From positions 1 to 22,989 of the forward strand of contig JANOQV010000119.1 in the NCBI GenBank assembly GCA_031414955.1: a DNA stretch of 22,989 nucleotides. Direction: 5' to 3'. Position numbers and translations under genes: made by a program. Origin of the DNA: Pedosphaera sp. (GTDB lineage: Bacteria > Verrucomicrobiota > Verrucomicrobiia > Limisphaerales > SIBH01). The notes below the pieces were generated by a model. That model ran no database searches, was not told the DNA's origin, and saw only the letters and a list, made by a program, of their open reading frames with translations. Numbering within the stretch: the stretch's first letter is position 1; each line of letters begins with the position of its first letter. Below are positions 2,330-22,836 of the stretch, in pieces.

Positions 2330-2728
2330 ATGAGTGCGCCAAGAATTCTTTACTGCCACTGCACGCACGCCCAAGTCGTGCCCAGAGAGGTCAAGGAAGC
2401 CGTGCTCAAGAAACTCTGCGACTCGGGTGTCTCCTTCGAGGCCGTGGCGGACCTGTGCGAAATGTCCGCGCGGCAGGACGCCGCGCTGCAACGACTCGCC
2501 GCCGGTGACAGCATCAAAATCGCGGCCTGCTACCCGCGCGCCGTGAAGTGGCTTTTCCACACCGCCAAGGCTCCCCTGCCCGTGGCCGGAACCGAGGTGC
2601 TGAACATGCGGGTGCAATCGGCCGAGGAAGTCGGGGCCGCGCTGTTTGAACAGGAATTGAAACCCAACCTGCCCGCGGGCAAGGAAACCAAACCGTCCGC
2701 TGCGGAACTGCCCGCGGCCGCCGCCTGA
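2330..2728 (+). CDS. Small putative Fe-S protein resembling the HdrA N-terminal domain
   Basis: 132 aa from ATG 2330. Motifs RILYCHC, DLCEMS, IAACYPR and EVLNMR parallel the HdrA N-terminal pattern VxVCHC / xxCS / AACSPR / xNIRE. 2-bp gap to the ferredoxin gene. Confidence 0.65.
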   Translation: MSAPRILYCHCTHAQVVPREVKEAVLKKLCDSGVSFEAVADLCEMSARQDAALQRLAAGDSIKIAACYPRAVKWLFHTAKAPLPVAGTEVLNMRVQSAEEVGAALFEQELKPNLPAGKETKPSAAELPAAAA

Positions 2729-2730
2729 TT

Positions 2731-3582
2731 ATGAGCATCAAAGACCAAACCACCCTCCGCGTTGTGCTCTATGAAGGCGAGGGAGCCCAACCACTGGATG
2801 CTGCGGACAGCTTGGCCGCCCTGACCGCGCTCTTGGATCGCGGCTACGCCGTCACCCGCACCACCACGCGCGGGAGCGTGGCTTCCGACGACCACACCTC
2901 GCTGCTCGTGCTGGGCCGATTTGGGGCAAGCGCCCCCGTGGCCGAAGACGCCACCGGCCGCAGCGCCGTGCAATTCCGGAATCTCGATCAAACTGGAATC
3001 CAGGGTGTCGCCGACCTCGTCGAGGCCGAACGCTCCCAACGAGGCGCGGCCCAGCACGGCGAATGGAGGCCGTGGTTTCCCGTCATCGACTACGACCGCT
3101 GCACCAACTGCATGCAGTGCCTGAGCTTCTGCCTCTTCGGTGTCTATGGGGTCGATGAGGGCGGCAAGATTCAGGCGCAGAACCACGACAACTGCAAAAC
3201 CAACTGCCCCGCCTGTTCGCGCGTCTGCCCCGAGGCCGCGATCATGTTCCCGAAATATAAGTCCGGCCCCATCAACGGTGACCTGGTGAGCGCGGAGGAC
3301 TTGGATCGGGAGAAGATGAAGATCGACATCAGCGCCCTGCTCGGCGGCGATGTTTACTCCATGCTGCGCCAGCGCAGCGAGCGCGCCCAGACCCGCTTCA
3401 GCAAGGAACGCGACGCGAACAAGGCTTTGACCGAGCGGCAGAAGTGCCTGGTCAAGCTGGCTCAAGCTGGCGACATCCCGGCGGAAGTCTTGATGAGCCT
3501 GCCCTCGCCGGACGAAATCATGCGCCGCGCTGAAGAAGCGAAGGCCAAAGCCCAGGCGGCTCTGGCGGCCCAGCCGAAATAA
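2731..3582 (+). CDS. 4Fe-4S dicluster (ferredoxin-family) protein with N- and C-terminal extensions
   Basis: WFPVIDYDRCTNCMQCLSFCLFG (CxxCxxCxxxC) and CKTNCPACSRVCP (CxxxCxxCxxxCP); charged helical C-terminal tail. Confidence 0.85.
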   Translation: MSIKDQTTLRVVLYEGEGAQPLDAADSLAALTALLDRGYAVTRTTTRGSVASDDHTSLLVLGRFGASAPVAEDATGRSAVQFRNLDQTGIQGVADLVEAERSQRGAAQHGEWRPWFPVIDYDRCTNCMQCLSFCLFGVYGVDEGGKIQAQNHDNCKTNCPACSRVCPEAAIMFPKYKSGPINGDLVSAEDLDREKMKIDISALLGGDVYSMLRQRSERAQTRFSKERDANKALTERQKCLVKLAQAGDIPAEVLMSLPSPDEIMRRAEEAKAKAQAALAAQPK

Positions 3583-3609
3583 GGCGGTCGGGACGAAGCA
3601 GCCGGCCAC

Positions 3610-4917
3610 TCATGGAGCGGCGATCTTGGGCTGAGCCTTCTGCCACTCGGCCTCGGTGGCATTCTTCAAGCCATGGATATGCACGAAGGTGCCCTTCTTG
3701 TTGCCCACGATCACGTCCGGCAATTTGTCACCGTTGAGGTCCGCCGCCAACACTTGCGTCCCCACGCCACTGTCCAGGTCGATCGGATAAGGCAGCCAGT
3801 CCACGTCCTGAGCGGAGTTGCGGACGAGCTTGAACCAGTAAACCACCGCCGCGCCCGCCGGGTCAGCATCGCCATGCGCGCCGTGAGCCCAAAATCGTTT
3901 ACCGGTCACGATGTCCTTGAGGCCATCGCCATCCATGTCCACGAGATCCACGGCGTGCAATTGCGAGAAAACCACGCCGTATTTGTTTTCCTTGGCTGTC
4001 TTGCCGGTGATGCGGTGCTCGGTGAAGGAAATTTTCCCGCCGTCCCGCTTCTGCTCAAACCACGAGAGTCCATAACCGTGGGCCTCCAGGCTGGTGATCA
4101 CGTCATTCCACCCGTCACCGTTCACGTCGTAGGCGTACATCTGCGCGCCGCCTCGACCGAAGTTCGCGGCGTGCTTGGTCCATTCGCCCTCCGCCCTGGC
4201 TTCCCACCAACCGCTGGCCTCCAGCAGGTCCGCCTTGCCGTCGCCATTCACGTCGCCAAAGCCCATGCCGTGGCTGAAGCGTTGCCACCCGCCCTTGGGG
4301 GTCACCGCGTGCCAGGTCCAGGGCTGGGCAGGATTGCTCCAATCCGGCGCGGCGTAGCCGAAGGTGCCGCGCGAGTTGGACACAATCTCGGGCTGGCCAT
4401 CGCCGGTGAGGTCGCCCCACTGCGGTGATTCATTGTCCACCACGTCGTAAACCTTGTGCCTCGTCCAGTGTTCAGCGCCGGCGGCATTCTTCGCGCCCTT
4501 GGGATTCTCGAACCACGAAGCGTCCAAACCGGGAAAGCCGTAGATCAAGATGTCGTCCCAGCCGTCCTTGTTGAAATCATGGGTGAAGGCGAAAAAATTG
4601 TCCGAGTAGGTGTTGTTCTGCCCGAGCGCGCCCTCAAAGCCGGGAATGGGAATCTTGGAGACTGGCCCAAGCTTGAAGCTCTTCGTGGCCGGATAGTACT
4701 CGTGCCGCGCCTTGAAATCCGGCCCTTCCCACCAATACGGCCCGGACACCACATCCGTTTGGCCGTCGTGATTGAAGTCGCCGATGGCAGCGCCCTCGCT
4801 CCAGAACTGATCGCTGAGTTGAAGCTTTTTCCAGGTGTGAACAGTGAAGTCGGCCGCGAGGGAGGAGGCGGCGCAGGCCGCGCAGACCGCCGCGAAAGCA
4901 ATTGATGTCTTGGTCAT
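3610..4917 (-). CDS. Secreted FG-GAP/VCBS repeat protein
   Basis: Start trimmed to ATG 4917 (signal peptide MTKTSIAFAAVCAACAASSLAA). Repeated DxNxDGxxD motifs (DFNHDGQTD, DFNKDGWDD, DVNGDGKAD, DMDGDGLKD, DLNGDKLPD). Confidence 0.88.
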   Translation of the reverse strand: MTKTSIAFAAVCAACAASSLAADFTVHTWKKLQLSDQFWSEGAAIGDFNHDGQTDVVSGPYWWEGPDFKARHEYYPATKSFKLGPVSKIPIPGFEGALGQNNTYSDNFFAFTHDFNKDGWDDILIYGFPGLDASWFENPKGAKNAAGAEHWTRHKVYDVVDNESPQWGDLTGDGQPEIVSNSRGTFGYAAPDWSNPAQPWTWHAVTPKGGWQRFSHGMGFGDVNGDGKADLLEASGWWEARAEGEWTKHAANFGRGGAQMYAYDVNGDGWNDVITSLEAHGYGLSWFEQKRDGGKISFTEHRITGKTAKENKYGVVFSQLHAVDLVDMDGDGLKDIVTGKRFWAHGAHGDADPAGAAVVYWFKLVRNSAQDVDWLPYPIDLDSGVGTQVLAADLNGDKLPDVIVGNKKGTFVHIHGLKNATEAEWQKAQPKIAAP

Positions 4918-5025
4918 ACGCAAGGTCTGCCAGAGCAGAGCGCCGGAAGCAAGACGAGGGTCAGCTATTTGCCGGGGCACCCCCCAGCCCAGCGATGACC
5001 CGCGCAGGAGGGTGGACAAAGGAAC

Positions 5026-5084
5026 GCCCCGGTGGGGGCCGGACAAACACACAGAATTTCTTGTCCGTTCCCCCGCTCCGGGGC
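5026..5084. repeat. Imperfect inverted repeat (REP-like element or terminator)
   Basis: GCCCCGGTGGGGGCCGGACAA ... TTGTCCGTTCCCCCGCTCCGGGGC, lying between the desulfurase stop and the FG-GAP start. Confidence 0.4.
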
Positions 5085-5169
5085 AAATCAACCGCACCTC
5101 GACCAACGGGCTGCAATCAGCTACTCAAACCAGGTTGGCGGCTCTTCAAGTGGTGCTGGTGGCCAGACC

Positions 5170-6339
5170 TTATCCCGGCTCCACGCCGTTTTCCAGAACC
5201 TTCTGCCGGGCCGCCGGGATCGTTCCCGGCACGGACTTCAAGGCGGCCAGGAGTACGTTCCAGTCCTCCATCGTCGTGTCCCAACCGGCACTGAAGCGGA
5301 GCGCGCGCCCGGCTTGCGCCGCCGTGTGGCCCATCGCGAGCAATACTGGAGACGGCTGCTCCTTGCCGCTGGAACAGGCGGAACCGGTCGAGACGGCGAA
5401 GCCCAGCTTGTCGAGTTTCACCACCCAACGCGGCTGACCATCCGCCTCCGGCATGAGCGCAGAAACCGTGTTCCAGAGACGCGGACTGCGGACTGCGGCG
5501 ATGGCGCAACCGGGCAAGGCGGTGAGCAATCCTTGCTCAAAGTCATCGCGCCCGGTGCCAAGCGCGACGAAGTCTCCACGTCCGATCTGTTGTGTGCGCC
5601 ACTCCAAAGCGGCGAGCATGGCGAGCACTCCGGCCACGTTCTCGGTGCCGGCCCGCCGCGTTTCCTCCTGCGGCCCGCCCCGCAGCAACGGCGTGAGGGC
5701 GAGGGTTGAGGGGACTTTGAGAAAACCGACGCCGCGCGGGCCACCAAACTTGTGCGCCGCGCCGGAGAGCCAATCACACACGCCCAGATCGCCCGCTGGA
5801 AGTTTGCCAATCCATTGCGCCGCGTCGCAGAAGAACGGAACTTCCCGCGGACGACAAAGCGCCTGCGCCGCGCGCCACGGTTGCAGCGCCCCCGTCTCAT
5901 TGTTCGCGGCCATGAGAGCCACGAGCGCCGGGCGCTGCCGGGACAACTGATCCTCCAGCCAATTGAGATCCGCGATGCCGTCCTGCGTCGCGGGGATCAC
6001 TTTCAACCGCGGACCAAAGTAAAACCTCGCCGGATCCAGCACGCAGGGGTGTTCGAGAGCCGACACCCACACTTCGCCCTCGGCCGCTCCGGTGCGCGCG
6101 TAGTGGTGCAACACCGTGTTGTTCGATTCCGTGGCCCCCGAGGTGAAGACGATCTCTGACTCATGGCAGCCCAGCCTCGAGGCCAGTGATTCCCGCGCTT
6201 CGCCCAGCGCGGCCTCGGCCCGCGCGCCCAGTCGGTGCGGACTGCTCGGATTGCCCGGAAATTTCTCCGTGGCCTCCAGCCAGGCCCGCCGAGCCTCCGG
6301 CAACAAGGGCGTGGTGGCGTTATGGTCGAAGTAAATCAA
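5170..6339 (-). CDS. Group I cysteine desulfurase (IscS/NifS-like, PLP-dependent)
   Basis: TTG start; YFDHNATTP, FTSGATESNN, MAANNETG, PLP-lysine motif HKFGGPRG, RAGTENV, catalytic loop STGSACSS. Confidence 0.93.
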   Translation of the reverse strand: MIYFDHNATTPLLPEARRAWLEATEKFPGNPSSPHRLGARAEAALGEARESLASRLGCHESEIVFTSGATESNNTVLHHYARTGAAEGEVWVSALEHPCVLDPARFYFGPRLKVIPATQDGIADLNWLEDQLSRQRPALVALMAANNETGALQPWRAAQALCRPREVPFFCDAAQWIGKLPAGDLGVCDWLSGAAHKFGGPRGVGFLKVPSTLALTPLLRGGPQEETRRAGTENVAGVLAMLAALEWRTQQIGRGDFVALGTGRDDFEQGLLTALPGCAIAAVRSPRLWNTVSALMPEADGQPRWVVKLDKLGFAVSTGSACSSGKEQPSPVLLAMGHTAAQAGRALRFSAGWDTTMEDWNVLLAALKSVPGTIPAARQKVLENGVEPG

Positions 6340-6430
6340 GGTGCGATTGGAACGGCGGCACGCCGGGCAGGCGAGAAAATTTGTTCACCTGCGCGCCAGG
6401 GTCTGCGCAAACAAGCCAACAAGCTGAAGC

Positions 6431-6458
6431 TTGAACTCCCACCGCGCCGCCTTACCGT
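6431..6458 (+). promoter_or_regulatory. Putative sigma70 promoter for the gcvH-like/GTPase operon
   Basis: TTGAAC-16 bp-TACCGT, 7 nt upstream of GTG 6466. Confidence 0.4.
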
Positions 6459-6465
6459 CCGGCGC

Positions 6466-6936
6466 GTGGACACCAGCAAGCCGACGACTCTTTTCTACAA
6501 GCGCTCGCATTTCGTGACGCATCTGCCGGTGGATTGCCTCTACTCACGTTCCCACTTCTGGATCGCGCGCCAGCCGGATGACACCTGGCGCGTGGGCCTG
6601 ACCAAGTTCGCCACCCGGATGCTCGGCGACATGGTCGATCACGGATTCGAGACGCCGGCGGATTCGCCGGTCGCGGTCGGACAAATCATCGGCTGGGTCG
6701 AGGGGTTCAAAGCCATCTCGGATGTTTATTGTGTGGTGACGGGAACTCTCCTGGGCGGCAATCCTGAACTGCGCGAGAAAATTTCCCTGATCGACAAGCA
6801 TTGTTACGACCGCGGCTGGCTCTATGCCGTGGGTGGCACTCCCGACGAACGATGCCTGGATGTGAACGCCTATCGCGAGCATCTCGACCGCGCGATTGAT
6901 TTGATCCTCTCGAAACAGAAAACTGAAGACGCATGA
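6466..6936 (+). CDS. GcvH-like lipoyl-carrier protein
   Basis: Probable GTG start at 6466 (the longer ORF overlaps the desulfurase gene). H-protein hallmarks YSRSHFW, VGLTKFATRMLGD, lipoylation-type motif VEGFKA (cf. VESVKA), N...YDRGWLY. Confidence 0.82.
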   Translation: MDTSKPTTLFYKRSHFVTHLPVDCLYSRSHFWIARQPDDTWRVGLTKFATRMLGDMVDHGFETPADSPVAVGQIIGWVEGFKAISDVYCVVTGTLLGGNPELREKISLIDKHCYDRGWLYAVGGTPDERCLDVNAYREHLDRAIDLILSKQKTEDA

Positions 6937-8105
6937 ACCTCAAGTCCAAGAGCCAAGGTCCAAATTCGGGGAAGGCGCGCTATGTGATGATCGGCGGCTT
7001 CCTCGGCGCGGGCAAGACCACGGCGGTGGCCCGGCTGGCGGAGCGGTTGACTCAGGGCGGGCGGCGCGTGGGACTCATCACCAACGATCAAGGGGTGGAG
7101 TTGGTGGACACGGCCATGCTCCGAGCGCGCGGCTTCGCCACGGAGGAAATCCCCGGCGGCTGCTTCTGCTGCCGGTTCAACTCGCTGGTTGAGGCCGCGC
7201 AAAAGCTGACGGACAGCACGCGACCCGAGGTGTTCATCGCGGAACCAGTGGGCAGTTGCACCGATCTGGTGGCGACGGTCACTTATCCGCTGCGGCGTAT
7301 TTACGGGGACAGTTTTTCCATCGCGCCCCTGAGTGTGCTGGTCGATCCGGTGCGGGCGGCGCGAGTGTTTGGATTGGACGCGGGGGGCAAATTCTCCGAG
7401 AAGGTGACCTACATCTACCGCAAGCAACTGGAAGAGGCCGACCTGATCGTCATTAACAAGAGCGAGACCGTGGACGCGCCCAGGCTCGAAGCTCTGCGCT
7501 CCAGACTCCGGGAGGAATTCCCCAGCGCCGAAGTGTTCGCGGCCTCGGCCCGCACCGGCATGGGACTCGAGGCATGGTTCGAACACCTTGCGGCGGCGGA
7601 ACAAATCGCGCGCGCCACGATGCCGGTGGACTACTCGCTTTACGGCCAGGGAGAGGCCTTGCTCGGCTGGTTAAACGCCACGGTGGCGCTGCGGGGCGCA
7701 AACGGTGACTTCGATGGCAATGCGGCGGTGCAAACGCTCTGCCAGGAGTTGCAGCACCACCTCGCCGCCGCCGGGGCCGAGGTCGCGCATTTGAAAATGA
7801 CGTTGAGTCCCGAGGCCGGGCTGTCCGATCTCGCGGTCATCAATCTGGTGCGTAACGACCACGTCCCCGAACTGTCTCAAATGTTGGGCGCGGAAATCGC
7901 CCGCGGCCAGCTCATCATCAACCTGCGCGCGGAGGCGGACCCCGAGCGCCTGCGCGCCGCGCTGGCCGCCGCGCTGGCCGCCGTGTTTCCCGCTGATTCT
8001 TTGGTGGAGGCGCGTTTGGAACATTTGGAAGCCTTCCAACCCGGCCAGCCCCGGCCGACTCACCGCGACGTGATTGTCTCCCCGCCGAAAGTTTTCGGAG
8101 CGTGA
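6933..8105 (+). CDS. CobW/COG0523-like G3E P-loop GTPase (putative metallochaperone)
   Basis: GGFLGAGKTT (Walker A), ITNDQG, GCFCC metal motif, EPVG (ExxG), INKSE. ATGA overlap with the gcvH-like stop. Confidence 0.88.
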   Translation: MNLKSKSQGPNSGKARYVMIGGFLGAGKTTAVARLAERLTQGGRRVGLITNDQGVELVDTAMLRARGFATEEIPGGCFCCRFNSLVEAAQKLTDSTRPEVFIAEPVGSCTDLVATVTYPLRRIYGDSFSIAPLSVLVDPVRAARVFGLDAGGKFSEKVTYIYRKQLEEADLIVINKSETVDAPRLEALRSRLREEFPSAEVFAASARTGMGLEAWFEHLAAAEQIARATMPVDYSLYGQGEALLGWLNATVALRGANGDFDGNAAVQTLCQELQHHLAAAGAEVAHLKMTLSPEAGLSDLAVINLVRNDHVPELSQMLGAEIARGQLIINLRAEADPERLRAALAAALAAVFPADSLVEARLEHLEAFQPGQPRPTHRDVIVSPPKVFGA

Positions 8106-13923: not shown

Positions 13924-14367
13924 ATGCAGGCGACTGTGAACGAGATTCTAAAACAGAAGGGTTCACGCGTGTGGACCATTCCCGGCGAAGCGACTGTCTT
14001 CGAAGCCATTCAACTCATGGCGGCCCGCAACATCGGCGCCCTGGTGGTCGCGGTCGGGGACAGGATCGAGGGCATCTTCACCGAACGCGATTACACGCGC
14101 AAAGTCGCGCTGCACGGCAAATCGTCGAAGGACACGCTCGTGAACGAGATTATTTCCCATCAGTTGTGCGTCGCGGCACCGGACAGCACCATCGAGGAGT
14201 GCATGCGATGGATGACGACGAATCGCGTGCGGCATCTGCCCGTGCTGGATGGCGGGGTGCTGGTCGGTTTGGTTTCCATCGGCGATCTGGTGAACTACAT
14301 CATCAGCGCCCAGAGCGTGGAAATTCTTCAATTGCAAAATTACATCACCGGCCAGTATCCGGGTTGA
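13924..14367 (+). CDS. CBS-pair protein
   Basis: NIGALVV, GIFTERDY, RVRHLPV, GLVSIGDLV, C-terminal YITG. Confidence 0.92.
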   Translation: MQATVNEILKQKGSRVWTIPGEATVFEAIQLMAARNIGALVVAVGDRIEGIFTERDYTRKVALHGKSSKDTLVNEIISHQLCVAAPDSTIEECMRWMTTNRVRHLPVLDGGVLVGLVSIGDLVNYIISAQSVEILQLQNYITGQYPG

Positions 14368-14454: not shown

Positions 14455-15537
14455 ATGGGCAATTCCTTCGGTCATTTGTTTCGCATCACCACCTGGGGCG
14501 AGTCGCACGGTGGCGGCGTGGGCGTCGTCGTGGACGGCTGCCCGCCGCGGCTGCCCCTGACCGAAGCCGACATCCAGCCCGACCTGGATCGTCGCCGTCC
14601 CGGCCAGTCGAAGATCGTCACACCGCGCAAGGAGAGCGACACGGTGCAGATTCTTTCCGGCACCTTTGAAGGCCGGACCCTGGGCACGCCCATCAGCATG
14701 TGGGTGAAGAACGAAGACGCGCGCCCGGAGGCTTACAACGAGATGGCCACAAAGTTTCGTCCCTCCCACGCCGACTACACTTACCAGACCAAGTATGGCA
14801 TCCGGAACTGGCAGGGCGGCGGACGTTCCAGCGCGCGTGAAACCGTGGGCCGCGTCGCGGCCGGGGCGATTGCGAAGAAGATTCTGCGCGAGCGTTTCGG
14901 CGTCGAAGTCCTCTCGTACGTCAAGCAGGTCCAGCGCATCACCGCTGATTTGAATCCCGACACGGTGAAGGCGAAGGACATCGAGTCCAACATCGTGCGC
15001 TGTCCGCACCCGGCCACGGCGGAGAAGATGATCCGCCTCATTGAGAAGATGCGCCGCATGGGCGACAGCGTGGGCGGCATCGTGGAGGGAGTCGCGCGCG
15101 GCGTGCCGGTGGGCTGGGGCGAACCGGTCTTCGACAAACTGGAAGCGGACCTGGCCAAGGCCATGTTGAGTCTGCCTGCCTCGAAGGCTTTCGAGGTGGG
15201 TTCCGGTTTCGCCGGCATTCAACTGACCGGACGCGAACACAACGATCTGTTCCGGGCCAAGGCGGGCAAGGTTCGCACTCTGACCAATCGCTCCGGCGGC
15301 ATTCAGGGCGGCATCTCGAACGGCGAAACCATTTACTTCCGCGTGGCGTTCAAGCCCGTGGCCACGGTCATGCACGAGCAGGACACGGTGGACGTGAAGC
15401 TTCAGAACACCACGCTCAAGGGCCGGGGCCGCCACGATCCCTGCGTGCTGCCCCGGGCCGTGCCGATGGTGGATGCCATGACCGCGCTCGTGCTGGTTGA
15501 TCACGCACTGCGCCATCAGGCACAGTGCGGAGGATGA
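14455..15537 (+). CDS. aroC: Chorismate synthase
   Basis: [41 protein letters not shown] signatures. Confidence 0.98.
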
Positions 15538-19413: not shown

Positions 19414-19526
19414 GCTCCGCGAAACGAGAATTAAAACCGACAAGGCGGCCTCAAAACGCTCCTTGATCAACACAAGCGCGTTGATGTCTATTGCCCACCG
19501 ACAGTTTCGGTTGTGAGCTTGCCTGG

Positions 19527-20111
19527 ATGAAAGTCGATCAATTCATTGCCCGATTTAGAACGCACTTTGAAACAGAAGGATTCAGTTTTGTCGATGGAGG
19601 TGTGACAGGCCCAGTCGTGCCAAGAGTTCCTCCCGCGCAGCAGCTCTGGACCTTTGGTTACGAACGAGGAGCAACGGATGAAGCGCTTTCTGCCTTGGCT
19701 TCAGAGTTGGTTGAACTCGCTGACCTAATTTCGTTTCGTTTGACAAGTGGTGCACCGGTTCTCGTTCTGGCTTTCAGTGGAGATGGAATGACGGACGAGG
19801 CGATAATTGGGCACTTTGTCCTTTTCGAACGATTTGCTCCCAAGTTAAAGAAATTTTCGCTCACATACTCGGGAGGCTTGAAGCGACAGGTTTGGCTGAA
19901 TGTGTTCGTCATTTTTGAAACAACTAAATGCGCGTGCCACTTCCATTTGAACGTGCAGCAGCTTTGCCTTCGCACGCAGTTCTGGAACAAGATTTATGTC
20001 AGACCGTGGGGAATAGACCTCGAATCCCGCCGTGTTTATCGTGCCAAAACGTTGCTCCCCGAGTCTGCTGATTTTTGGTCTGCCGAGAAATTGGAGCAGC
20101 AACTCTTCTAA
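19527..20111 (+). CDS. Hypothetical protein (AT-richer than its surroundings)
   Basis: 194-aa ORF from ATG 19527; no recognised motif; 14 bp upstream of the next ATG. Confidence 0.7.
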   Translation: MKVDQFIARFRTHFETEGFSFVDGGVTGPVVPRVPPAQQLWTFGYERGATDEALSALASELVELADLISFRLTSGAPVLVLAFSGDGMTDEAIIGHFVLFERFAPKLKKFSLTYSGGLKRQVWLNVFVIFETTKCACHFHLNVQQLCLRTQFWNKIYVRPWGIDLESRRVYRAKTLLPESADFWSAEKLEQQLF

Positions 20112-20125
20112 GCAAACTGGTTCGT

Positions 20126-20776
20126 ATGCGCCATAACCCTCGCAATCGCCCAACGCTAAACCGGTACACAAGCCTGCCAGTCCTCCTAGACATCCTCACA
20201 AGGAAGGAGATCATGCTTTTGAATCCAGCATCGTGGGAGGACATAAACGATTCGTTTTACATTGAGCAGTACAGGATTAAGAAGAACCTGAAGGCAGTTC
20301 TGGCCCTCTGCTTCACGACACGAGCTGAGACTTTTCACCATTGGAAGATCTTCTCCGGAGGATCGAGTGGGGTCTGCATACGGTTTTACAGAACAACGTT
20401 CCTCCAGTGTGTGCGCGATGTTCAAGGAACCCATTCAAAATCTGTGAAATACAGGCTCGTCAAAGAACTGAAAGAGAATCCTCCGCCCCTCGAAGACTGG
20501 CCCTTTCTGAAGCGCAAACCATTTCGGGACGAGGGCGAGTTCAGGATTATCTACGAAAACAGCGAGACATGCGAAGAGACAAAGGCAATCCCATTTGATG
20601 TCAATTGCATTCACTGGATCTCCTTAAGCCCTTGGCTACCACGTTCTATTATGGAGACTGTCAAGAAGGTCATAAAAGCAATCGATGGCTGTGAAAAGGT
20701 TCCCGTCAACCGATCCACTCTGATCGAGAATTTAGGTTGGAGATCAGCAATCGAGAATACGCCGGCTTGTTCCTAG
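20126..20776 (+). CDS. DUF2971-like protein
   Basis: RYTS...NPASWED.ND, LCFT..ETFHHWKIFS...GVCIRF, V.Y, FLKRKPFRDEGEFRII: the motif order typical of DUF2971. Confidence 0.7.
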   Translation: MRHNPRNRPTLNRYTSLPVLLDILTRKEIMLLNPASWEDINDSFYIEQYRIKKNLKAVLALCFTTRAETFHHWKIFSGGSSGVCIRFYRTTFLQCVRDVQGTHSKSVKYRLVKELKENPPPLEDWPFLKRKPFRDEGEFRIIYENSETCEETKAIPFDVNCIHWISLSPWLPRSIMETVKKVIKAIDGCEKVPVNRSTLIENLGWRSAIENTPACS

Positions 20777-21213: not shown

Positions 21214-21519
21214 TCAGGCTGGCGGGAAGAACCGGGGCAAATCCCTCATGCCGTGAAGAACGCGCAGGATCACGATCCGGTCGCCGCGCGGCTGATAGAA
21301 GACGAGGTAGTTTCCGAAGCCGTCAACCGCCCGGGAGCGGACGCCGACGAGTTTGCGAAAGCTGCGTTGCGAGCCGAGTTCGGGATGGGCCGCGATGTAG
21401 TCGAAGGTTTGTTCCGCCGCCGCCAGCAGCCGATCCGCCGCGTCCACATTGTCGCGGGCGATGTAGCGCCAGTGTTTGTTCAGATCGAGGCGGACGCGGG
21501 CCTTGACGACGTAGTTCAT
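21214..21519 (-). CDS. parE: ParE/RelE-family type II toxin
   Basis: DL..HWRYIARDN.DAADR, HPELG, YLVFY...IVILRVLHGMRDL; TGATG overlap with the antitoxin gene. Confidence 0.88.
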   Translation of the reverse strand: MNYVVKARVRLDLNKHWRYIARDNVDAADRLLAAAEQTFDYIAAHPELGSQRSFRKLVGVRSRAVDGFGNYLVFYQPRGDRIVILRVLHGMRDLPRFFPPA

Positions 21520-21782
21520 CACGCGACGGGGCCGCCAGCGTGTTCCTGATGAAGTTCGGTGCGAAGATCAGTCCAGAAAGTTTTGCTCGCGGGCAGGTCG
21601 GGGCTGTCGAGACCTTCCTGGATTTCCTGTTCCAACCAGTCCGCGCCGGCTTGCAGCATTTTTTCCTGCTCCTTCCAGCGGCGCAGGCTGTCGCGGATGA
21701 CTTCGGCCACATCCACGTAATCGCCACTGGTGATTTTCTCGGCGACGAACTTGTCGAGGCTGGGAGACAAATCAATTTTCAT
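21519..21782 (-). CDS. parD: ParD-family (ribbon-helix-helix) antitoxin
   Basis: MKIDLSPSLDKFVAEKITSGDY...EVIRDSLR...IQEGLDS pattern; directly upstream of the ParE-like gene. Confidence 0.88.
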   Translation of the reverse strand: MKIDLSPSLDKFVAEKITSGDYVDVAEVIRDSLRRWKEQEKMLQAGADWLEQEIQEGLDSPDLPASKTFWTDLRTELHQEHAGGPVA

Positions 21783-21788
21783 GGTGCG

Positions 21789-21817
21789 AGGCTATTGCGG
21801 ATGGCGGCGGTTGTCAA
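21789..21817 (-). promoter_or_regulatory. sigma70 promoter of parDE (probably leaderless transcript)
   Basis: TTGACA(21817-21812)-17 bp-TAGCCT(21794-21789)-6 nt-ATG. Confidence 0.7.
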
Positions 21818-21843
21818 AAGGCGAGGGTATCGAGACCAGTCAC
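21814..21843 (-). pseudogene. Probable N-terminal scar of a VapC/PIN toxin
   Basis: GTGA overlap with the antitoxin stop; reads (M)TGLDTLAF*, and xxLDT is the typical PIN-domain start. Confidence 0.5.
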
Positions 21844-22073
21844 GACTCGCCTCCGCGCGCGTCATTGACCAATGCGCTCAAGGGCTGGCCGGGCGGCTGG
21901 TCGCCCCAGACGGCTTTGGCCCGTGCGAGAAAATCCGGCTGTGGGCGCGAGGCGGGGACGAGCTTCGCCACGACTTGATCCTGCTGCGTGACCTCGACTT
22001 CTTCTCCGGCGGCAAGCCAGCCCGAAATCTTGGCCCACTGCTCCGGCACCTGCTGAACGCTGGCGGTTTTCAT
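21840..22073 (-). CDS. Phd/YefM-like (VapB-type) antitoxin, orphan
   Basis: MKTASV...W...GEEVEVT....VAKLVP. Upstream TTGCGG-17 bp-CACTTT-6 nt-ATG (22108-22080). Confidence 0.78.
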   Translation of the reverse strand: MKTASVQQVPEQWAKISGWLAAGEEVEVTQQDQVVAKLVPASRPQPDFLARAKAVWGDQPPGQPLSALVNDARGGES

Positions 22074-22141
22074 GCCGGGAAAGTGCCGGGCAATTCACTC
22101 TGCCGCAAGCCGCGAAATGAATGTTCACTGCGCTGCTGCCC

Positions 22142-22198
22142 GTCTCGCGAACTCTCCGTGGTCAGCCCCCTTTCAGCCATGCCCGCAGCGTGGCCAGG
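22142..22198. repeat. 57-bp imperfect direct repeat, copy B (encodes LATLRAWLKGG* on the minus strand)
   Basis: 50/57 identical to 20799-20855; retains the TIM-barrel gene's last codons, stop and downstream 20 bp. Confidence 0.9.
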
Positions 22199-22397
22199 AA
22201 CGCCGGAAATGAACGTCATCAACGCCCGAACTGAACTCGCCCCGCTGCCGGGGACGCCGTCCCGCCTCGCCGGGCACCGGTTCCAGCCGGCGGCAGGGCC
22301 ATTCCCGCTCAAAACCGCGCTTTTCCGCGCTGGAGGGGCGTTTTTCCGCCTCGGAGGGGCCATCCCGGTCGCGGTGGGGTGTTCCACGGGCTTCGCC

Positions 22398-22691
22398 GGG
22401 AAGACCCCGGCGGTTTCTTGGGCCACCCCGCGCGAAAAGGTTTGGAACCCGGAGCCGGGAGGGAAGACCCCGCCGGTTTCGTGGAACACCCCGGCGCGCG
22501 GAGGGGCCACCCCGGCGGATTCCGGGAAGCCCCCGGACGTTTCCTGGGCCACCCCGCGGGAAATGGTCTGGAACCCACGCCGTTCCTGGGCCACCCCGCT
22601 GCGCGGAGGGAACACCCCGGAAGCCGCAGGGCACACCCCGGCGACTTCTTGGAACACCCCCGAACGCGGAGGGACCACCCCCGGAATAAGG
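22398..22691. repeat. Degenerate 21-bp tandem array (14 clear units, about 4 more degenerate units back to ~22314)
   Basis: Units of form (G/T)GG-NNN-ACC-CCG-N9 in exact 21-bp phase without indels. The plus frame reads GKTPAVS WATPREK VWNPEPG GKTPPVS WNTPARG GATPADS GKPPDVS WATPREM VWNPRRS WATPLRG GNTPEAA GHTPATS WNTPERG GTTPGIR. Confidence 0.9.
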
Positions 22692-22836
22692 AGCGCGACC
22701 GTCCCGGTCGCTCCAGCCGGCGTCGCCCCGGCTGGCTCCCCGCCCCCCGTGCCTGCACCAACCACGACGTTCTTTTCGCGAGGGGAAGTTTTCGGCGAGA
22801 CGCCGAAAACCGCAGGCGAGACTCCGCGCGCTCCCC
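22690..22836. repeat. REPIN-like element with double-hairpin arms
   Basis: Left arm GGAGCGCGACCGTCCCGGTCGCTCC plus CCAGCCGG..CCGGCTGG; right arm GTTTTCGGCG-AGA-CGCCGAAAAC (22788-22810) followed by ...CGCGCTCCCC. Confidence 0.65.

Follow-up and report, generated by a model that had tools for sequence, protein, structure and literature searches.

Several described systems resemble parts of the gene set reported here. Cyclase genes of the SHC-like clade have a polyprenyl synthase gene nearby, and their precursor is probably not squalene (Santana-Molina 2020, PMC7306690, supplement); the function of this clade has not been demonstrated, and evolutionary scenarios for cyclases and their substrates await it (McShea 2025, PMC12414744). 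The bacterial membrane-spanning lipid synthase (Mss) couples fatty-acyl tails, has been reported only in anaerobes and was active in E. coli only anaerobically (Sahonero-Canavesi 2022, PMC13159169), and mechanistic work on it is lacking (PMC13459092). The carrier LbpA of the sHdr system has a strictly conserved lysine and two strictly conserved cysteines (Cao 2018, PMC6067878). Here we analysed a 22,989-nucleotide stretch of Pedosphaera sp. DNA (contig JANOQV010000119.1, the window hereafter), in which five cofactor-related genes, called A to E, lie close together. These genes very probably belong to a terpenoid pathway, and the balance of the evidence tips slightly towards their being the accessory arm of a predicted nine-gene pathway for a polycyclic isoprenoid lipid.

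The window is the entire contig C119 of the source genome (6.5 Mb, 95.9% complete, 5.8% contaminated). The five genes and the divergent intergenic region are as follows.

2330..2728, + strand: A, small Cys-rich flavodoxin-like domain with a possible resemblance to the HdrA N-terminal Fe-S domain, 132 amino acids (aa), no family match
2731..3582, + strand: B, 2x[4Fe-4S] ferredoxin, 283 aa, Fer4 match
5170..6339, - strand: C, group I (NifS/IscS-type) cysteine desulfurase, 389 aa, TTG start, Aminotran_5 match
6340..6465, no strand: C-D divergent intergenic region, 126 bp
6466..6936, + strand: D, GcvH-like carrier, 156 aa, GTG start, GCV_H match
6933..8105, + strand: E, G3E (COG0523-like) P-loop GTPase, 390 aa, cobW (PF02492) match

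A and B are separated by 2 bp, D and E overlap in an ATGA, and C and D diverge over 126 bp. The coordinates of the open reading frames (ORFs) thus agreed with the layout described in an earlier, sequence-only reading of this DNA, and its statement that the window has no isc/suf, gcvP/T, lip or hdrBC gene was borne out among the 17 ORFs scanned, A to E included. None of B, C, D and E reached the curated cut-off of a named equivalog.

The proposal of that reading that the five genes belong together was confirmed by orthologues that co-locate and co-occur in other genomes. Genome loci were collected around D, and of the 80 best among 343, 64 contained E, 48 contained C, 36 contained A and 35 contained B. 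These counts are lower bounds, because no locus extends farther than 8 kb or beyond the end of its contig. Clustering of the neighbours and naming by Pfam gave four more recurrent genes.

F, other contig of the source genome: radical S-adenosylmethionine (SAM) enzyme
G, other contig of the source genome: DUF116-polyprenyl synthase fusion
H, other contig of the source genome: single prenyltransferase alpha/alpha-toroid protein
I, other contig of the source genome: SHC-domain class II cyclase ('SHC-like')

F was detected in 26, G in 24, H in 20 and I in 7 of the 80 genome loci (E-value <=1e-20; lower bounds as well), and in relatives the genome loci showed a D-E-A-B-F-G-H operon with I and C nearby. 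Homologues of all four (58-79% identity) are encoded in the source genome, on contigs C303, C193, C14 and C180, so that its nine genes are spread over five contigs. Since all four partners are found elsewhere in the same genome, the window holds the displaced half of a nine-gene system. The usual order is a nifS-type gene diverging from D-E-A-B, which shows that the position of A-B upstream of C is a rearrangement particular to the source genome.

Among the best 80 of 188 metagenome loci anchored on a distant D (three of these loci being canonical GcvH), 11 contained a one-strand D-E-A-B-F-G-H-I-desulfurase operon, and the six of these that were placed in a tree formed a single branch. The order F-D-E-AFd-G-H-I was found in G176. 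A reduced cluster, consisting of an A-ferredoxin fusion, F, G, H and I with neither D nor C, was present in the closed genome G338 and at a second locus of G359; the latter genome (C4 and C16, L104) has D and C at one locus and the divergent reduced cluster at another.

A single draw of 101 genomes from the order was then searched for six markers, namely A, C, D, E, G and I. All six were present in 43 genomes, none in 38 and only part of them in 20; about 2 genomes with all six would be expected if the markers were independent, kin not being independent and most genomes being drafts. A was detected in 53 of the 58 genomes positive for G or I and in 0 of the 43 without G and I. The corresponding values in cluster-positive and cluster-negative genomes were 51/58 and 1/43 for E, 47/58 and 1/43 for D, and 46/58 and 4/43 for C. 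The split between presence and absence of the cluster cuts through families and even genera. Phylum-wide, a close D (E-value <1e-25) was found in 4 of 300 other genomes, none of them labelled as the same order, and F adjoined D in all four. The linkage of the five genes is far beyond chance.

The radical-SAM enzyme F was compared with 1.84 billion representatives by means of a profile. After its own family, the search reached proteins of 450-500 aa with E-values from 1e-71 to 1e-51, and 51 of the 64 matches of at least 380 aa scored higher to a member from Moorella thermoacetica than to F. The hosts of this sister family (Firmicutes including Moorella, Caldiserica, Coprothermobacterota, Atribacterota, Spirochaetota, Nitrospirota and Nanoarchaeota) fit the Mss host range, its length class is that of Mss and its motifs fit the six Mss blocks, as given in the Mss paper and its supplement (PMC13159169). 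F was 32% identical to the Moorella thermoacetica radical-SAM protein over 336 aa (pairwise E-value 2e-62) and nested within the sister family in a FastTree phylogeny with two own-genome outgroups, forming a shorter clade of its own, of about 400 aa, with support of 1.0. Three C-terminal cysteines were common to both families (7/7 rows of F and 15/15 of the sister family). The motifs CNxxCxGC (CNLRCQGC), GGEP and IEPC of F, plus blocks III and IV, fit Mss blocks I-IV and its VEPC motif (PMC13159169), block II (GGEP...F.N) being read from the alignment. F may accordingly be a relative of Mss, judging from motifs and hosts and not from an accession match: it shares blocks I-IV and the EPC motif but, unlike Mss, belongs to a shorter clade, is found mostly in aerobes and inside a terpenoid operon, and differs in blocks V and VI. 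No solved structure of the F family or of the sister family was found, the best matches being SkfB-type enzymes. Enterobacterial and Methanosphaera plasmids (NZ_CP077819.1, NZ_CP117576.1 and NZ_CP118754) encode proteins with a radical SAM annotation that are distantly related to F (27-28% identity).

The proteins A and B seem to be associated with F. The four invariant cysteines of A are C9, C11, C43 and C67, and the likeness of A to the HdrA N-terminal Fe-S domain, already suggested by the sequence-only reading, received moderate support. Seven of the eight longer A homologues read were A-ferredoxin fusions and one sequence, P0243, was a triple A-ferredoxin-F fusion. B is composed of an N-terminal domain without a family, two [4Fe-4S] clusters and a conserved helical C-terminal extension; its eight cluster cysteines plus C239 were invariant in 31/31 homologues, and it was located directly before F (within 500 nt) in 18 of the 26 loci with both genes. 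B together with A is probably the electron carrier for F. The idea that the N-terminal domain of B could be a Cys-less copy of A was discarded, with an hhalign probability of only 0.2-0.4%.

D belongs to a family of GcvH-like carriers of its own and is not a canonical GcvH, as judged from scores, identity and tree position: it reached 66 bits against the cut-off of 115.85 bits of TIGR00527 (GcvH), was 29% identical to the canonical GcvH of the source genome (contig C36) and fell on a separate branch, in agreement with the sequence-only reading. The closest homologues of D were in Pedosphaera, Limisphaerales and Verrucomicrobiota records, some of whose titles look mislabelled. E79 and K82 were invariant in 38/38 sequences, the lysine lying in E-G-F/L-K-A; in a wider set of D proteins the lysine was kept in 30/31, C130 in 18/31 and C89 in 13/31, so that no cysteine was invariant. 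C130 was present in 79/81 close loci and missing in distant members, and D as a Cys-persulfide carrier was rejected; the persulfide relay through D contemplated in the sequence-only reading is unsupported because D has no invariant Cys. D adjoined the radical-SAM gene F in L090-L093 and L125-L129. The source genome encodes LipA and a LipM/LplA-like protein, the latter read from its motif, and PF03099 matches were located on other contigs.

The cluster resembles the sHdr-LbpA system (PMC6067878) in having a lone GcvH-like protein with a conserved lysine beside Fe-S proteins, one of them possibly HdrA-N-like. It differs from that system by having no hdrBC, no ligase gene and a carrier without the two invariant cysteines, and also by the linkage of its carrier gene to terpenoid genes. 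No hdrABC-like genes were present among the conserved neighbours, and the best HdrB score in the source genome was 42 bits against a cut-off of 345, its CCG proteins being of 444-460 aa. A system of the sHdr/LbpA type is thus unsupported because no HdrB scored above the cut-off and the cluster contains no ligase.

C kept the pyridoxal phosphate lysine K197 (HK197FGG) and the catalytic C322 (TGSAC322), the latter in 46/46 sequences. Its scores were well below the cut-offs of NifS (260 against 530.75 bits) and IscS (168 against 643.2 bits), and it formed its own clade (100/99), separate from three paralogues in the source genome. In line with the sequence-only reading, C is not the housekeeping IscS; that paralogue is encoded on contig C169, beside genes for IscU and an Rrf2 protein. 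In the second lineage, the desulfurase encoded behind I scored higher to a genome paralogue than to C in 11/11 loci; not being an orthologue of C, it must have been recruited independently. By these scores, non-orthologous desulfurases entered the cluster at least twice, and a third independent recruitment is probable. NifS of the nif clusters and DndA are pathway-dedicated NifS-type desulfurases. Like them, C is an extra group I desulfurase, with Fe-S-rich clients, besides the housekeeping IscS; unlike them, it is encoded in a cluster without a NifU/IscU scaffold, which has a G3E GTPase and a GcvH-like protein instead. No SufBD was found in the source genome (95.9% complete), whose Fe-S assembly appears to rest on the IscS/IscU pair and three further desulfurases. 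The divergent C-D arrangement was present in 46/80 genome loci, with a gap of 68-775 nt, and the only recurring word was a sigma70 -35-like one in 9/32 short gaps. A shared operator was sought in this gap and none was found.

In E, the motifs GFLGAGKT (Walker A), CFCC and EPVG were kept across 64 orthologues, and C77, C79, C80 and C109 were present in 64/64. E scored above the cut-off of PF02492 and below those of CobW (48/332 bits, score/cut-off), ZigA (41/600) and CobW_rel_Se (63/180), and its C-terminal domain had no family match. E is probably the metallochaperone of the pathway.

System-bearing genomes were grouped by the presence of a C orthologue and then searched for COX1, oxidase types not being distinguished. 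A COX1 match was found in 45/45 system genomes with a C orthologue, at E-value <=1e-120 in 44/45. Without a C orthologue, 0/9 reached E-value <=1e-120, six having no match and three weaker ones. G123 entered this comparison on D, E, F and C only. Ordinary desulfurases were present in 5/5 genomes checked, four of them from the C-less group. This pattern fits a role of C in building or repairing Fe-S clusters better than that of a sulfur donor for the product.

With regard to the terpenoid partners, the DUF116 domain of G has seven invariant cysteines, and I has both SHC domains and the DxDD motif, with 65.6 bits against the hopene-cyclase cut-off of 431.1. I fits the SHC-like description (two-domain class II, non-SHC, polyprenyl synthase nearby, host of the Planctomycetes-Verrucomicrobia-Chlamydiae (PVC) group); it shares with that clade its origin from Verrucomicrobia, the DxDD motif and the polyprenyl synthase neighbour (PMC7306690, PMC12414744), and its assignment to the clade, by features and host, is putative. 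The cluster is similar to hopanoid (hpn) clusters with HpnH in pairing a cyclase with a radical-SAM enzyme for a terpenoid. It is unlike them in that a polyprenyl synthase, which elongates chains, serves as precursor enzyme and in that an F orthologue is far below the HpnH cut-off (38 against 225 bits). The source genome has separately a true SHC and two squalene/phytoene-synthase-family genes. DUF116, GCV_H, cobW and Radical_SAM had 0 mentions in the text of the PMC7306690 supplement, whose synteny figure S10 lies outside that text, and the five window genes, the radical-SAM enzyme and DUF116 were unmentioned in the available parts of PMC7306690 and PMC12414744. Searches of the open-access literature found neither an account of the five-gene arm nor a link between Mss and a cyclase.

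The best reading of these results is that the A-E arm would deliver electrons to, and provide an Fe-S build and repair kit for, an oxygen-sensitive radical step. The prenyl chain built by G would exceed C15, and I would cyclise it. F would abstract hydrogen from an unactivated carbon and form a C-C bond that joins two prenyl chains, or a prenyl and an acyl chain, either ahead of cyclisation or following it. A and B would constitute a three-cluster electron carrier reducing F for SAM cleavage. A, B, F and the DUF116 domain with its seven cysteines would contain many Fe-S clusters, for whose assembly and renewal C would give sulfide and E would handle metal; aerobes would need this most. The housekeeping ligase (LipM/LplA-like) and LipA would place an acyl or lipoyl group on K82 of D, and D so modified would serve F, most likely as a dithiol reductant. 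For this stepwise mechanism as written the chances seem to be even. As Mss-style joining of chain ends would not yield a squalene-type linkage, products other than a hopanoid-like triterpene are conceivable. We advance only tentatively the broader proposal that squalene-synthase-free polycyclic lipids are made by an Mss-type radical-SAM enzyme that would join two prenyl chains, or a prenyl chain and a GcvH-carried acyl chain, feeding or finishing an SHC-like cyclase, and that aerobes would use a private desulfurase, GTPase and lipoyl kit for this purpose.

Several points weigh against this interpretation. The nine-gene pathway is predicted from genomic evidence, namely from the linkage and co-occurrence of the genes, their fusions and the catalytic residues that they keep. 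The existence of reduced clusters with neither D nor C implies that the core chemistry can do without both, and a lipoate ligase was not seen among the conserved neighbours of the cluster. The P0243 fusion is a single sequence and could be an artefact. The nine C-less genomes of the COX1 comparison represent 6 genera, related genomes do not count as independent, and the comparison omitted 8 genomes with partial sets. Four genomes (L098-L101: G342, G360, G372 and G396) have a C orthologue without the system; in them it is near a mutY-like gene, identified by eye, and this is possibly the ancestral site of C or a remnant. F has DAY and not the DF of Mss block V, and RGC and not the proline-rich block VI. 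In three species, which we take to be correctly assigned, the accessions reported for Mss differ from the sister-family proteins. None of the 25 sister-family clusters checked matched an accession in the available lists of PMC13159169. Given these differences in blocks V and VI and the lack of an accession match, the connection with Mss is drawn from motifs and hosts.

Among the alternatives, insertion of sulfur survives best, unlikely as we consider it. F would be LipA/BioB-like and would transfer sulfur from its auxiliary cluster to a prenyl or D-bound acyl chain, with C refuelling it, to give a sulfur terpenoid or a lipoate-like cofactor on D. LipA naturally receives its substrate on GcvH, D often adjoins F, the auxiliary cluster of F has only three cysteines and hence an open site, and a desulfurase was recruited at least twice and probably three times, all of which agree with this alternative. 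However, some clusters that look complete contain F but neither D nor C (G338 and the second locus of G359), D occurs without a C orthologue in three genomes, the nearest family of F fits a C-C forming enzyme, and C tracks cytochrome oxidase as expected of cluster repair and not of a stoichiometric sulfur donor.

Somewhat less probable still is that D carries the substrate, an acyl group (octanoyl or other) on K82 being presented to F and coupled to the prenyl chain or the cyclised terpene to give a hybrid acyl-terpenoid lipid. D-less clusters retain F, G, H and I, and an enzyme for acyl loading or release was not among the conserved neighbours, which argues against such a carrier, even though K82 and E79 are invariant in a protein with no invariant Cys, the D-F adjacency persists with other genes elsewhere (L090, L092, L093 and L125), a LipM/LplA-like protein is encoded in the source genome, and Mss couples fatty-acyl tails (PMC13159169).

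The sequence-only reading had favoured a self-contained pathway. In the form of an sHdr/LbpA-like sulfur or lipoyl relay with no tie to lipid synthesis, this is very improbable and largely refuted by the profile: A, D and E were present in only 0, 1 and 1 of the 43 genomes without G and I, they share an operon with F-G-H-I in several lineages, no HdrB scored above the cut-off, and D does not have the two conserved cysteines of LbpA (PMC6067878). The absence of the terpenoid genes from the window, the possible resemblance of A to the HdrA N-terminal domain and the presence of C orthologues without terpenoid genes in 4/43 genomes would be in its favour. A-E would instead be the accessory arm of a terpenoid cluster, whose four other genes are on other contigs of the source genome. 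A chance neighbourhood of unrelated cofactor genes, which the rearranged order and the interrupting FG-GAP gene could evoke, has a negligible likelihood in view of the conserved gene order and co-occurrence.

The putative link between the F and Mss families, the A-ferredoxin(-F) fusions, the repeated recruitment of desulfurases and the tracking of cytochrome oxidase by C are new. If the broader, squalene-synthase-free proposal holds, a lipoyl-domain protein would act in terpenoid synthesis, which would be new for this kind of protein, and orphan polycyclic biomarkers could have one of their sources here. What the cyclases of the SHC-like clade use and make is a question raised explicitly (PMC12414744), to which the nine-gene set adds a specific hypothesis on the chemistry of the radical step; the set also offers a reason why the cyclase expressed alone might fail. 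The system was found in 58 of the 101 sampled genomes of the order, and the lipid may therefore be common. Cheilanthanes are listed as fossil polycyclic isoprenoids without a characterised pathway (bioRxiv 10.64898/2026.01.29.702649), and a link of the nine-gene product to cheilanthane-type fossil isoprenoids is speculation. Finally, F-type proteins may pass loose Mss screens and be misread as a capacity for branched glycerol dialkyl glycerol tetraethers in PVC genomes.

Between B and C, the window contains a secreted-type FG-GAP repeat gene (3610-4917, - strand), which was found in 0/80 related genome loci. Its absence from all of them indicates that it is an unrelated insert and not part of the system; the FG-GAP, esterase and phosphoesterase neighbours were rejected as cluster members, having been seen in 0, 0 and 1 of the 80 loci. 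Extra partial copies of B (91% identical, C113:4-99), I (C50:3-290) and SHC (C136) were found in the source genome at contig ends or on short contigs, and may reflect the 5.8% contamination or a strain mixture. Farther along the window, a chorismate synthase gene (14455-15537, + strand) lies beside a CBS-domain gene (13924-14367), both being ordinary housekeeping genes. Two ORFs without a Pfam match at 19491-20776 have a GC content of 51-56% against about 63% and were possibly acquired. The region 21214-22173 (- strand) contains, by eye, a ParE/ParD-type toxin-antitoxin pair (21214-21522 and 21519-21782) and an antitoxin-like ORF (21840-22073), and the region at about 22300-22750 is repetitive, near-identical segments recurring in the ORF translations.

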